Source: an uncultured bacterium
Lineage (GTDB): Bacteria > Chlamydiota > Chlamydiia > Chlamydiales > FEN-1388
NCBI GenBank assembly: GCA_964409235.1
Contig: CAYPCN010000005.1
Coordinates: forward strand, 1,282 to 65,281
DNA: 64,000 nt
Direction: 5' to 3'
Each line of letters opens with the position of its first letter. The stretch's first letter is position 1. Made by a program: the position numbers. This document shows, one piece after another, positions 1 through 57,000 of the stretch.

Positions 1-3000
1 TTATCCTTTTAAATAGAAAATTGGAGCCGATTTTAACAAACTATTATTACAAAGTCAATTATTTACAGATCTTGACAGATTCAAGTCCACATGAGTACAA
101 ATCCGTTTTCTTTGTTGGCAGGAGTGACATTGTGAGGCTGGCGCTACAAGTTCAGCGCCATTCGCGATGTGGATTGTAGAAGAGAAGAGGGAGATTTTTG
201 GATCGAGCAACCAAAAAAACCGACGAAGTCCATATTCCCTGACATAGCAAATGGCTTGTTCAAACTTCCTGTTGGCCAAAACCCGGTTGACTGGATACGA
301 TGGTAGCTCTATTCCGGATTAGCTCAGTGGTAGAGCAGTTGACTGTTAATCAATTGGTCGCAGGTTCGAATCCTGCATCCGGAGATGTGTGCCAGCGATT
401 GTCCCACACACCCAAACATCTACCTCTTGATGGGAGGGATGTAAGACACCCCCTCTGTTGCCGGCACCTCGTGTCGCTCAATACAGACACTTGTATCCCA
501 GCCAATCAAAAAAACAACACAAAAAAACTAATTAATGATAGAATGTATATAAATACTTTTGGCTTACAACTGTCTTTTTAAATGCACTGAAAATGGACGA
601 AAGATCAACATCCAAGAACAAAATACACCACTAGGTGCGTTTGTATGATCGATCAACACGTTCATTGCTTTCGTCCCCACGCTTCAGCTCCCATCGTTCC
701 CCCACATCTAGAGCAACAATTTTCCGAGCTAAACGCCGTTGAACATCCGGCATGGCTGGGAAAGGTTCGAGCCTGGATAGGACAGATGGAATTTCAGTTC
801 TTACATCGATTTCATTGGGAAACACATTTTTCAGTCGAGTACTTAGGAACAGGGGTTGGAGCGGCCAATTATTTTCAAGATGCCCTGCTCGCTATCCTCA
901 ATCTTCTCTCAGAAATGTCCGATGATCAGTCAAAGCATCTTCTCGATGCTCTCCAATATGCTCTCCAAATCGAGCAAGAGAACTGTTCAATCCTTGCTGA
1001 TCTCCGTGGTTTCACAGAGCACCATTTGGCACAAACTATCCAACGCAATGTCTCGGCGCTTTCTGTGGGCCAATATGTGGCCATCCCTTGTACTTTCGGG
1101 AATCATGCTACCCTGATGGCCATCACTTGCACACATCACGACGACGGAGGGAAAAAAACGTACCAGGTGACCATCCACAATACTGGGGAAGGATTTGAGC
1201 AATACCATTACTGTAAACGATGTTCCGATGGAAAGATTCGATTCCAAACAGCGCTTGAAATCGGGCACATTTCCGAAGACACCCTATGTTCAGGCCCTTT
1301 TTTCGAAAAAATTCTTCGGCTTGGAAGAACCGCTTCGCTCTATGGCCTGAGGGAATTATACGAAGAAATACTACCTCTTTTGAAAGGAACTGTGCTCCCT
1401 CCAAGTAAGAATTATCAATTGTGGAGCCACGGCCAGCTTGGTGGGACATGCACGATGCTCTGCCTTCTTTCCTTCGTTCGCTCCCAATCCTCCAATACAT
1501 GGTTTAAAAAGTTCCGCGACCTTGGGAGAGTGCACGCACTCGTACACGGCTATCGAGATATTAAAAGTGGCGTCGGGAATTTTAGCGCTCAAAAACTAAT
1601 TACGCTTGAAATGGTGCGCTCTCTTCAACGCAGCTTTTGGAAAAGAGGAGCCGAGCTTCCCGCCCCCCTTCTTGAAACCAAGCGTCAGCTCGTCGAGCTC
1701 GCGAGCACCTCCTGCCTCCACTCCTCAGAACACCATAAAGAGCTCGTCAACACCACCAAAACACGTATTGCAAGACTGCTCTCAGCCTGTGTCTCATGTG
1801 TACAATCAGAATGTTGGGATCTTCTTCCGGAAATACTCGAACGCACAGCAACTCGTGCTATCGCAATGTCGAAAAAGTCGGCCCGCATCTCAGAAAAGGA
1901 CATGGAGCTGTTTCATACAGCTCTTCAAGAACTCCAAGCATTCTCGAATGAAAGGATCTTGCCTGCTCAACAGATATATCTCATCGCCGCTATTGCAGCT
2001 ATCTTCCTGAAATTCGGTGTTGCTCTTACTGATACGGAAACGAATTTTTGCGAACATTGGGTCTATAAAAGCATGTTTCTTCGAACGAAGGTCGACAAGG
2101 CTATTGGAAACTCCGCACAGCACCTCCTCACCTCGTCCTATGCACCATGGGAGCGAGAGGTCAACGATATCCACATTCCAGAAGGGCTGATCAGCATGCA
2201 GCATCGCATGTCGTGAACTGCGCGAAATCAGAGATACAGCCCCTACTCAAATCGAACAAAGCATCGCACTCCCCAAGGCGCCTGCACTTTTTCATACCTG
2301 CCTGCAGTGCATTGCAAGATGTTCACGGGCATCACTGAGCGCAGGGGATACTCCTGAGGAAAGGAAGGAGATATCCACATCCCCTCTTGTCCAAACAACC
2401 TTGAAATTTCTGTATTCAAACTCTCTTCCGCTAAGGAAATAAGGGTGGCTGTATTCCTAGAACAGGTAAACGCTTCTGTAGCCTCGCCTACTTCAGAGGG
2501 AAGAGAAATAGGCTGAAAGCGCTGGGATGTTTTCGGTCTCCCTGTGAGAGTATTGATGGTATATCGCATAGTTCGTAGGCCCCAATCTACCCAATGGTCC
2601 ACATACGTCCTGTTCATTATTTGTGTGGTTTCTACAAATCGAGACGCTCGACTCAATAAGGCTTTGGCACCATTCGCAACACACTGCCTATAGATATCTT
2701 GCAGCTTCTGTTCGATGACGTTCTCGTCCGTTGTGTTCCACAAAAGCTTCAGCTTTTCGAGGGTTTCAGGGAGAAGAATTTTTCTTAACACCGGCCTGAA
2801 TGCCTCCTCAACAACAAAATCACTGATAGACGTCTGTCCGACGGACAGACCCGAAAAATTCATGTCAAGAGTGGCTGGGCATGGCCCTTCTGAGAGCGCA
2901 TCGGGATGGACAATAGCATCGGAAATGACAGGAGCCGCGTGATTATATCCCGCATTCACAACATAATGAGGTACATTTCTATCTTTCCATAGCGCGGCTA

Positions 3001-54000: not shown

Positions 54001-57000
54001 ATTCAAGTGGGGCAGCAGGTCCGATGCATAGGGAGTTGGGTGATCGACCCCAAGCATGGAAAGCAGTTCTCAGTGCAAAAACTCTCCTACGAACTTCCGA
54101 CAGATCCGTCCTCAATAGAACGCCTCATTGCATCGGGATTGTTCAAAGGTGTCGGCCCTGTATTTGCACAGCGCATTGTCCGTCGCTTTGGTGCCCACAC
54201 GTTGGCAGTCATTGAACACGAGCCCGAACGGCTCTACGAAGTCGAAGGGCTGGGAAAACGTCGAGCGCGTCAGATTATCGAATGCTGGAAGTCGCGAACA
54301 GAGCAACAAGAGCTCTTTATCCTGCTCTGCAATTGGGGCATCAGCCAAACAATGGCGCTAAAAATCCTCAAGAAATGGGGAAACACCGCCCTCCAGGTTA
54401 TTAAAAACAATCCCTATCAACTCGCGAAAGAGATCCGCGGCATTGGGTTTCACGTTGCGGATCGCATTGCCGACCGCCTTGGCATTGACCCAAAATCCGA
54501 TGTTCGGGTCGACGCCGCCATTGAATATTTTCTCTGGGAGCTCGCAGGAGCTGGCCACACCTGCAGCCCTGTTGATCAATTCCTCGTCCAAGCTGCAGAG
54601 AAGCTGGACGTTCCCGCCCCCCAGATTCAACAGAGGATCTATGCAGGGTTCACCAAGGGCGATCTCGTGCTCTTTACGCCGTCACAGGGAGGAGAGTACT
54701 ACGTAGCTTTGAAACAGCTTTTCTCGTGCGAGCGCTCAATTGCTGCGAACATCCATCGACTTCGTACAGCCAAGAGCCGCCTTCGAAATGTCGATATCCC
54801 CAAAGCCATTGCTTGGGCCGCCACAACGCTGCACCTACACTTTTCTACAACGCAACAAGAGGCTCTCGCCGCTGCCTTGACGAATAAAGTCATGATTTTG
54901 ACAGGAGGGCCGGGGACTGGGAAGAGTACGATTACTCGCGCCATCATCGCTATTATAGGCAAATTGACAAAGCACATGATCACTGCCGCCCCTACTGGCC
55001 GGGCGGCGAAACGGCTGCAGGAAATGACAAAGCACTATAGCCAAACGATCCATCGTCTCTTAAAATTTAACCCGGGCACTGGCACTTTTGATCACAATGC
55101 TTCCAATCCAATCCACTGCGACCTGCTCATCATCGACGAGATGAGCATGGTTGACGCACACCTCGCCTCCTGCCTCTTCGACGCTGTGCCAACCCATGCT
55201 CGCGTTCTGCTCGTTGGCGATGTGGACCAGCTGCCGAGCATCGGAGCAGGGTCGGTCTTAAAAGACATGATCGATAGCCAAACGATCCCCATGGTACGGC
55301 TGACCGAAATCTTTCGCCAAGCACAGCACTCAAAAATCATCGCCAATGCCCACCGCATCAACCATGGACAGATGCCATATCTCACCAATGATCGCGGAGA
55401 TTTCTTCTTTTTCCCAGCTGCCGAGCCAAACGATGTACGCGCCTGTCTGCTCGACCTTGTGACTCGACGCATTCCAGAAAAATTCGGGTTTGACCCGAAG
55501 AAGGAAATTCAGGTTCTCGTTCCAATGCGCCGTGGCGAATGCGGCATTGACCAGGTCAACGTCGATCTTCAATCATTTTTCTCTGGCCGGCCTACAAAGG
55601 TGGGGTCCTTTCTCATCAATGACAAGGTCATTCAGCTCAAGAATAATTACCAAAAAGACGTTTTCAACGGCGACATCGGGTTCGTCAGCAGCATGGACGC
55701 AGCCACGAGGTCCGTCGTCGTGGCGTTCGACGATACCCATGTTATCTATGACGCTTCAGATCTTGACGAGCTTTCGCTTGCTTGGGCCGTTTCCATTCAC
55801 AAATACCAGGGCAGTGAATGCCCCTGTGTGGTGATTCCGATCCACACGCAGCATTTTAAATTGCTGAATAGAAACCTTCTCTATACCGCTGTCACGCGAG
55901 GAAAGAAATTGGTAGTCCTCGTTGGGAGCACCAAAGCCATTGCCATTGCCGTGCGCCAAGAGAACGCCGATCTCAGGTGGACGCATCTCCAAGCAGCCCT
56001 TCGCTCGGTTGCCAGCCCATAACCGTTCTCTCAGCAATTCCCTTTCTGGGATTCGTAAAAGTACATGCAAACAAATCTAAATATTTTTATGTACATAGAG
56101 ACAAGCATTGGAATCTCAATGGGCCTTTTGCGATGTGGCTTTTTAGAGGAGAGGCAGGAGACTTTTGGCCAAAACAATCCTTCTCTGTCCTCAAAAAGGC
56201 ACATCGTAGATGGCTCTCAATGCAGACTCGTTTGTAGCCGAACGAGGTATATATAGCGACTCGTGGAGGGTGTATGTCCTTTATCGAAAATCCTGATCTC
56301 GTCAGCGACTTTGTTGCATACAGGTCTGGCCAGAAGATCAGGAAAGGAACTCTCCACGGAAGGTCGATTGATGTTATCCATCTCGGAGAAACTGTTGGGA
56401 TCGACCCACAAAGCTTGGCGGAATATATTTGCAACACCTATATCCCCTCGCAGCAGCTGAAAGACAATCACCGTATCATTGTCCAAACAGCCATTGAAAC
56501 CCACTCGAAAGCTCCTCGCTCATCGCTCCAATCTCTTCATGAGTTTATTACCGCTGTACTCACCAACCTCTCGGAGGCGACAGGGAGCAATGCTGTACCC
56601 GTTCAGAAGAAAGTAGATCGTGCATATAAAAGAGCTGCTTTAAGCGCATCGCACCCTTCTGCAAAACGGAGTTCTCGCACACCAGTAGCAGTTCGAGCCG
56701 ACCAAGGAGGATCCAGTCGAGTCTACCGCGTGGCAAAACGAAGCTTGCCTAGACAACCCGATGAGAACGAGGAGATATACGCATTCCTTCAAAAGGAAAT
56801 CAAAGAAGAGGATCCTTTCGTGCGCACTCTTCTGCATGTGAAGCTGGGGGAGATGCTGCAACATGAGATAGCACACCGAAAAGCACAAGGACAAACAATT
56901 GATGCTGAAGGTATGCGCACACTGTTCAAGCAGCGATATCAAACGGCATTGGAAGACGTCAAGCTTCTGGTCGTTCGGTGGGGGGATTTAGACACACTGG

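Follow-up and report, generated by a model that had tools for sequence, protein, structure and literature searches.

Bacterial miniature inverted-repeat transposable elements (MITEs), such as RUP of Streptococcus pneumoniae with IS630-Spn1 and Nezha of cyanobacteria, are short (under ~300-500 bp), non-coding, hairpin-forming sequences that occur in many intergenic copies, have terminal inverted repeats in common with a parent insertion sequence (IS) and are bordered by target-site duplications. Here we describe a dispersed palindromic repeat with these same features in a 64,000-nucleotide stretch of DNA (hereafter the window; contig CAYPCN010000005.1, positions 1,282 to 65,281) from an uncultured bacterium of the Chlamydiales. 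The family differs from RUP and Nezha in its probable parent, an IS1182-like element with a DDE_Tnp_1 transposase, in its target duplications, which are 4-7 bp or absent rather than of fixed length, and in its host, an uncultured environmental chlamydia. Our literature search found the terminus sequence in no paper and no description of a MITE from that phylum or of one derived from IS1182. We consider it very likely that the repeats are MITEs, non-autonomous derivatives of an IS1182-like IS whose DDE (DDE_Tnp_1) transposase recognizes the terminal sequence GAGCCATTTGCGATGT.

Other described repeats share parts of this picture. The Correia elements of Neisseria (CREE/NEMIS) are 100-160 nt long, have inverted ends, fall into long and short size classes, lie next to genes and are co-transcribed as hairpins; they carry a characteristic 26-bp inverted repeat, duplicate a TA, and have no parent transposase that we know of. 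The window family is similar in size, inverted ends, an internally deleted short class and position beside genes, but it has no sequence similarity to Correia elements, its duplications are 4-7 bp with no fixed sequence, and a transposase of its likely parent has been identified. An identity with Correia elements was excluded by the duplications TTTC, ATTGAT, TCAAT and GTTCA, none of them TA, and by the different terminus. ERIC/IRU and RPE repeats are likewise dispersed imperfect palindromes of ~100-150 nt, and RPEs occur in obligate intracellular bacteria. The window family, however, has no sequence relation to either, and we rejected an RPE identity because RPEs are inserted in frame within genes whereas all eight window copies are intergenic. 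To our knowledge, ERIC elements have neither a transposase nor target-site duplications.

The ISs that we identify as partners resemble the IS1182 family (IS1272/TnSha1 of staphylococci) in having a DDE_Tnp_1 transposase, a length of 1.8-2.0 kb and short inverted ends. The ISfinder range for direct repeats in that family is 0-60 bp. Target duplications of IS1182-family members are reported to be irregular or absent, and IS1272 inserts into hairpins with deletion and makes no duplication (PMC4923244). Unlike IS1272, the window elements usually leave a duplication.

A palindromic family between genes

The original prediction placed eight copies of the repeat in the window, at 155, 4812, 14847, 20025, 37944, 41235, 42610 and 56121, the names by which we refer to them. 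Repeat finding and direct reading recovered imperfect palindromes at all eight, and an nhmmer profile built from aligned copies returned exactly these eight as significant matches in the window (expectation value, E, 2e-18 to 3e-46). The terminal motif GAGCCATKTGCGATGTG, which stands at both element ends in inverted orientation in the copy alignments, has 11 matches in the window with at most two mismatches, compared with 0.05 expected from dinucleotide-preserving shuffles. As predicted, the element is a long imperfect palindrome with arm TTTAGAGGAGAAGCAGGAGATTT..GGATCGAGCTACC and a central CATATG-N6-CATATG hairpin. The profile assigns one consistent ‘forward’ orientation to every copy, with arm A (GGATTTTTAGAGGAGAAG...) leading, and by this measure the copies are divided equally between the strands:

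155-258, plus strand: copy of 104 nt with arm A and the center kept and arm B mostly deleted (nhmmer match 155-246, E 2.7e-25); direct repeat TTCA, or GTTCA with a one-base boundary shift
4812-4976, plus strand: full-length copy with a degraded right terminus (match 4812-4976, E 1.3e-41)
14842-15012, minus strand: full-length copy with a degraded left terminus (match 14852-15012, E 6e-44)
20021-20146, minus strand: copy of ~122 nt with a central deletion and one terminus, the left, degraded (match 20028-20146, E 1.6e-31)
37944-38054, minus strand: 111-nt copy that has lost most of arm B (match 37944-38054, E 7e-28)
41235-41400, plus strand: best-preserved copy, full length at 166 nt, with a near-perfect hairpin (nhmmer match 41235-41400); target duplication TTTC
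42610-42778, minus strand: full-length copy of 169 nt (match 42610-42778, E 2.5e-44); target duplication ATTGAT
56121-56216, plus strand: 96-nt copy whose central deletion is symmetric (match 56121-56216, E 1.9e-18); target duplication TCAAT

Copy length thus ranges from 96 to 171 nt. The predicted size of about 165 bp describes four copies (164-171 nt) and fails for the other four, which are 96-126 nt long and, in alignment with the long form, lack an internal stretch or sequence from one arm. The elements are non-coding, in agreement with the original prediction: open reading frames (ORFs) of at least 100 aa that overlap a copy either have no family match or lie mostly in adjacent sequence, and we judge them spurious. 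All eight copies lie between genes, as had also been foreseen, and the sole genic overlap is that of the degraded tip of the 14847 copy with a stop codon.

Two further sites could be terminal remnants:

51674-51700, minus strand: tentative terminal remnant, a 17-mer match with two mismatches (nhmmer E 0.24, not significant)
38111-38134, plus strand: tentative old terminal remnant (nhmmer E 2.3, not significant)

The first matches the arm-B end (AAAAAGCTCATCGCCAATGGCTC) at 20 of 23 bases by our own count and lies inside the 3' end of glyQS (48669-51725). The slightly larger interval 51656-51700, in the last ~20 codons of this fused glyQS gene, might be a minimal copy with little beyond the two termini (CTTCCTTTGCAGATGTG-AAAAAG-CTCATCGCCAATGGCTC), although it is insignificant by profile. 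The second begins with GAGCCATTTGCG (38111-38122) and lies on the xseA-proximal side of the spacer between xseA and the triosephosphate isomerase (TPI) gene, tpi.

Termini, partner insertion sequences and target duplications

The outer 16 nt of the window repeats (GAGCCATTTGCGATGT) are identical to the inverted termini of 1.8-2.0-kb ISs in other metagenomes. A metagenome scan revealed the same element family on three contigs (L125, L126 and L134), and a further contig (L131) carries a frameshifted DDE_Tnp_1 gene followed after ~120 nt by an outward-facing terminus, ...ACCACATCGCAAATGGCTC. The read-through protein of this gene matches Pfam DDE_Tnp_1 (PF01609), with IS1182 as its best NCBIfam model. 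A protein search returned 1962 homologues, the intact ones 438-445 aa long, and IS termini were sought in the DNA around seven of the 1962. The ISs of intact homologues (L140, L141-147/L149, L154 and L155) are bounded on both sides by inverted GAGCCA(T/A)TTGCGATGT. The ISs are as follows:

L140, 1970 bp: inverted GAGCCATTTGCGATGT at both ends; GAGTCA on either side
L141-147 and L149, 1792 bp: termini GAGCCAATTGCGATGT and GAGCCATTTGCGATGT; many different flanks
L154, split by a nested unrelated IS: same termini as the group; ACTAT on either side
L155, 1801 bp: same termini as the group; no flanking repeat
L151-153, left end only: same terminus; adjacent genes methanogen-like
L150, 1784 bp: transposase 53% identical; diverged terminus GAGGCATTCGCGCTGT; no flanking repeat

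Within the L154 copy (1106-4437), the intruding IS separates the left terminus from the transposase gene and has a DDE_Tnp_1_4 transposase of its own (1574-2884).

The claim that the family matches no recognized repeat or IS therefore holds for the interior of the element and fails for its 16-nt terminus, which is the end of this IS1182-like group. A transposase flanked by the same inverted repeats, which the original prediction had proposed to look for, was found in other metagenomes in the form of these DDE_Tnp_1 ISs. Rfam, searched across the whole window at gathering threshold, returned tRNA-Asn (312-385) only and no element match; the 41235 copy had no Rfam match even at E <=1, and a BLAST search of the element against plasmids likewise found no match.

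Target duplications were sought in 14 elements by matching the bases directly to the left of each element to those directly to its right, with 182 mismatched flank pairs as the control. Exact direct repeats of 4-6 bp flank eight of the 14 elements, compared with repeats of at least 4 bp in one of the 182 mismatched pairs. In addition to the four window copies listed above with a duplication, these are L125 (TGGTA), L126 (CTAT), L028 (AGGTCG), which belongs to the second family described below, and the complete IS L140 (GAGTCA). Copy 37944 (TTGTATT/TTGTATC) and L106 have flanks that match at six of seven positions. Variability in duplication length is common to the short elements and their presumed parents, as the ISs have duplications of 6 bp (L140) or 5 bp (L154), or none (L150 and L155). 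It also agrees with the pattern reported for IS1182 relatives.

Several observations weigh against our interpretation. First, 40 of the longer window ORFs, among them every ORF adjacent to a copy, were scanned with Pfam and NCBIfam and yielded no transposase, Y1 enzymes included; this agrees with the original prediction that the window holds no cognate enzyme, and none could be tied to this genome. Second, the target duplications are irregular, varying in length and missing at three window copies. Third, MITE arms and IS ends are only loosely similar beyond the outer 16 nt. Fourth, the L131 IS has no match of at least 80% identity among the contigs of four metagenomes that contain this organism. 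Fifth, no joint that precisely skips an element occurs in seven DNA metagenomes from seven studies. Finally, with respect to family placement, the IS1182 model NF033551 has a cut-off of 270 bits, and proteins P0140, P0125 and P0163 reach 126-134. Because of these sub-threshold scores, because the model alignment covers just the C-terminal (catalytic) half of the transposase and because annotated plasmid genes of the IS1182 family are 24-30% identical to the partner transposase, we term the partner ‘IS1182-like’ and do not call it a member of IS1182. The partner ISs nevertheless show a DDE_Tnp_1 domain, a length of 1784-1970 bp, within the ~1.3-2 kb usual for the family, and 16-nt inverted ends, and every property of a MITE that is accessible from sequence was found in the family: size, terminal inverted repeats, target duplications, copy number, IS termini and empty orthologous sites.

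The same terminus also occurs in a different setting. In the Planctomycetota metagenome-assembled genome D4M11_20 (JBMCUM01), five loci (L028, L054, L079, L092 and L106) hold elements of 72-111 nt or longer, several at contig ends, that have identical termini (GAGCCATTTGCGATGTGGCCTTTATCCGTAG...ACATCGCAAATGGCTC) and an unrelated G+C-rich interior. Flanking repeats are AGGTCG at L028 and GGCCGTT/GGCCGAT at L106. The D4M11_20 elements form a second, independent MITE family with the same terminus. These five loci came from a genome-collection scan that used a pattern with 15 specified bases and otherwise gave mostly chance matches; none of its 117 loci was extended by BLAST. Several loci were set aside. 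At L124 and L130, which are the two junctions of an IS3-family insertion, a terminus-like motif lies in unique DNA beside that insertion without ending an element. In L127-L129, L132 and the viral contigs L135-L139 there is the bare motif only, which we treat as chance. At L133 100-400, hairpins (GCTCCC(T/A)TTTTGGGAGC) are repeated ~60-70 nt apart downstream of a terminus-like motif and constitute a different array.

Copy number, orthologous sites and age

One copy per 8 kb had suggested a large genome-wide family, and metagenome data bear this out. Summed contig depth rises 12-27-fold over the element; relative to unique depth, the figure is 14-27 times. In run X1, 44 contigs match the 41235 copy at >=88% identity, most at about single-copy depth, and at least 12 different flanks adjoin one terminus. 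It is safe to state that there are dozens of copies per genome. Contig L126 is from the same species as the window, because its unique part has a depth of ~6 in runs X1-X3, equal to that of the window, with ~1% differences.

Fixation of copies at orthologous sites in distant relatives, named in the original prediction as an argument against mobility, was not observed for the two copies compared. The 37944 copy is absent from the xseA-tpi spacer of L118/L119, L120, L121 and the sister species L156, whose TPI is 81% identical, and the 41235 copy is absent from the spacer between the thioredoxin-like and DTW genes of L156 and L120 (z-score, z, <1). The L156 spacers were examined by shuffle-controlled local alignment. 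A diverged copy that seemed visible by eye in the thioredoxin-DTW spacer was rejected by this test (z 0.8), and the xseA-tpi spacer of L156 contains a significant 36-nt remnant of arm B (z 7.8) away from the site of the 37944 copy, at the place where the window has just GAGCCATTTGCG. Because this remnant is present in L156 and the two copies are not, the family predates the split from L156 and the 37944 and 41235 copies are younger. A base-level empty-site alignment with L120 was attempted, and the spacers are too diverged for it.

The xseA-tpi spacer has another feature. A block, TCAAGGTATAGTC-N8-10-GAGGTGAA(G/C)AGTCAAG, is conserved there in four chlamydial lineages (window 37955-38100, minus-strand view; L118 40-90; L120 9815-9870; L156 4935-4990). 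It includes a -10-like box (TATAGT) and could function as the promoter of tpi or as an operator. L118/L119, L120 and L121 keep this TCAAGGTATAGTC...GAGGTGAA.AGTCAAG block without the 111-nt element that comes after it in the window.

Is the family still moving? It could be mobilized by a full-length IS located in another part of this chlamydial genome or carried by a co-resident organism. In favor of this, the 41235 copy is near-perfect, with both termini intact and a clean target duplication; some copies (for example L126, L125 and 41235) are 90-94% identical to one another, and many contigs are 90-95% alike. Set against this, the seven metagenomes contain no empty-site or new-site joints, several termini are degraded and no close relative of the L131 IS occurs in the same runs. 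Metagenome contigs cross the junctions of copies 37944, 41235, 42610 and 14847 unchanged. Pairwise identity among copies is 65-94%, typically ~78%, and from this divergence, together with the three degraded termini and the lack of insertion polymorphism, we take most copies to be old, probably fossil, insertions that have ceased to move. We regard continuing activity as unlikely, though the best-preserved subfamily may retain some.

Many apparent ‘skips’ proved to be other copies with central deletions and not excisions. In run X1, one contig enters the 41235 copy from its unique left flank (40900-41350, 13 differences) and continues into 834 nt of unrelated sequence, and in run X6 another enters the 4812 copy from unrelated sequence at 4830. 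In both cases the assembly may have crossed from one copy to another, or the element may mark a rearrangement specific to a strain.

If the repeats are MITEs, as we favor, the following history could account for them. A full-length IS would provide the transposase in trans, and this enzyme would bind both termini, excise the element and insert it at a staggered cut, whose repair leaves a short direct repeat that varies between 4 and 7 bp. The founder may have been a foldback of ~166 nt with arms ~70% alike, giving a long hairpin, and slippage across this hairpin would generate the internally deleted variants of 96-126 nt. The family would have entered the lineage before the sister species separated, been amplified to dozens of intergenic copies and now be largely fossil.

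Hairpins, neighboring genes and host

Folding confirms the long hairpin expected from the palindrome. The 41235 copy has a minimum free energy of -74 kcal/mol, with z values of -8 and -10 for its two strands, and the forward strands of the other copies have z values of -1.3 to -6.6. Across copies, a manual count of stem changes gave 37 transversion mismatches and two compensatory changes, which argues that the hairpin is mostly decaying and not maintained. RNAalifold recovered the terminal stem alone.

The genes around the copies are varied. Four copies (4812, 20025, 37944 and 41235) lie between divergent genes and one (14847) between convergent genes. The 155 copy is 54 nt upstream of tRNA-Asn. 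The 4812 copy separates an ORF at 2243-4702 (minus strand) from mutS at 4999-7647 (plus strand), the 20025 copy an HlyD-like ORF (start 19990) from a UDP-glucose dehydrogenase ORF (20277), and the 41235 copy, both termini of which are intact, a DTW/DUF367 ORF from a thioredoxin-like ORF. The 42610 copy is 16 nt downstream of the stop of an ORF at 42794-43237 (minus strand), and the 56121 copy lies between tandem genes, a RecD2-like ORF (end 56022) and an ORF at 56274-61031. The 14847 copy exactly occupies the gap between two convergent stop codons (14842-15015): its degraded left end covers the TAG stop (14847-14849) of a TolC-like ORF and its intact end adjoins the stop of an ABC-2 permease ORF (15013). 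The terminal codons of the TolC-like gene were probably replaced when the copy inserted. The 37944 copy ends 23 nt before the TPI start codon (37921), a start position backed by both the coverage of homologues and the gene call of the collection, and so would lie within the tpi 5' untranslated region (UTR) or carry its promoter.

These positions raise the possibility that the elements began as MITEs and were exapted as 5'-UTR or 3'-UTR RNA hairpins, acting in processing, stability or termination, that are now under selection. Copies are 16-81 nt from start codons, often 16-80 nt upstream, where they would belong to the 5' UTR or promoter region, and at 37944 the tpi promoter would have to be within the element or upstream of it. 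Arm B faces the downstream gene in all five cases that can be judged (155, 56121, L125, L126 and L134), making the forward strand the sense strand, although this count is small and the second neighbor is known in just one case. The forward strand is the more stably folded one in four copies, by 6-17 kcal/mol. Among single-side stem changes on the forward strand, which come from copies in both genomic orientations, G.U pairs outnumber A.C mismatches by 23 to 10 (p = 0.035), a modest excess. The exact fit of the 14847 copy between two stop codons also points this way. The scarcity of compensatory double changes, however, speaks against maintenance, and stems are decaying in most copies, with 13-15 of 62-65 scored pairs broken in 4812 and 42610. 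A consensus scan found no consistent promoter-like or terminator-like sites in the elements, and there is no Rfam match. Two metatranscriptomes from the same study contained no reads of this organism. On balance we doubt that the family has been retained for such a role, while these hints leave room for a secondary regulatory function that some elements may have. The idea that the repeats are instead REP/REPIN extragenic palindromes, spread by a single-copy RAYT (a tyrosine HUH enzyme related to IS200/IS605) and not by a DDE enzyme, draws on their intergenic, palindromic and highly repeated nature and on the lack of a DDE transposase in the window, but it can be set aside with near certainty, as REPINs, built of palindromic units of 20-40 nt with a GTAG or CGTC head, make no flanking direct repeats and those here are far above chance, the terminal sequence matches the inverted ends of DDE_Tnp_1 ISs exactly and has GAGCC in place of such a head, and no Y1 transposase is encoded by the ORFs scanned.

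The host is an environmental chlamydia, because the nearest named TPI homologues are chlamydial: relatives are 60-82% identical, and Parachlamydiales, Protochlamydia and Chlamydiales ~50-56%. Its DNA occurs in wastewater, bioreactor and digester metagenomes. The window is ~51% G+C, with negative GC skew throughout, and holds housekeeping genes (mutS, priA, leuS, glyQS, dnaG, uvrC, metG, tpiA and xseA) and an ABC/HlyD/TolC efflux cluster. Two adjacent minus-strand ORFs (23033-24307 and 24881-26482) have a eukaryote-type UCH domain (PF00443) and are candidate host-directed deubiquitinase effectors; a eukaryote-like Ser/Thr protein kinase ORF lies at 29689-31476. At 32135-32224, a 45-nt unit is tandemly duplicated in perfect register (96% identical) inside a 721-aa ORF (31508-33673) without a Pfam match. 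In run X1, contig depth rises 7- to 35-fold over parts of the ABC ATPase (17244-18305), priA (10341-10871) and mutS (6624-7154) genes, which is likely to reflect cross-mapping of conserved motifs from abundant other organisms.

A more ambitious account would combine several claims: that this is the first MITE family characterized in Chlamydiota, that its partner ISs form an unclassified group with an invariant 16-bp terminus beside bacterial and methanogen-like genes, that this terminus spawned MITEs independently in two PVC phyla, and that surviving copies are kept as sense 5'-UTR hairpins tuning tpi, mutS and efflux genes. Taken as a whole, we find this account improbable, more so than either continued activity or exaptation by itself.

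There are several implications. Mobile DNA is generally held to be scarce in obligate intracellular chlamydiae, and dozens of MITE copies show that an environmental chlamydial lineage underwent a burst of transposition. The family provides a dated marker for comparing strains and species, with some insertions being lineage-specific and one remnant common to the sister species. The link between element and transposase makes the system testable in Escherichia coli and marks out both ends of a widespread IS group still without a class in curated models. Copies directly upstream of start codons may affect expression, a possible but unproven effect. More broadly, the host is unusual but the mobile DNA is ordinary, and its mechanism is unsurprising: a familiar form of selfish DNA that should be useful for the comparative genomics of environmental chlamydiae.

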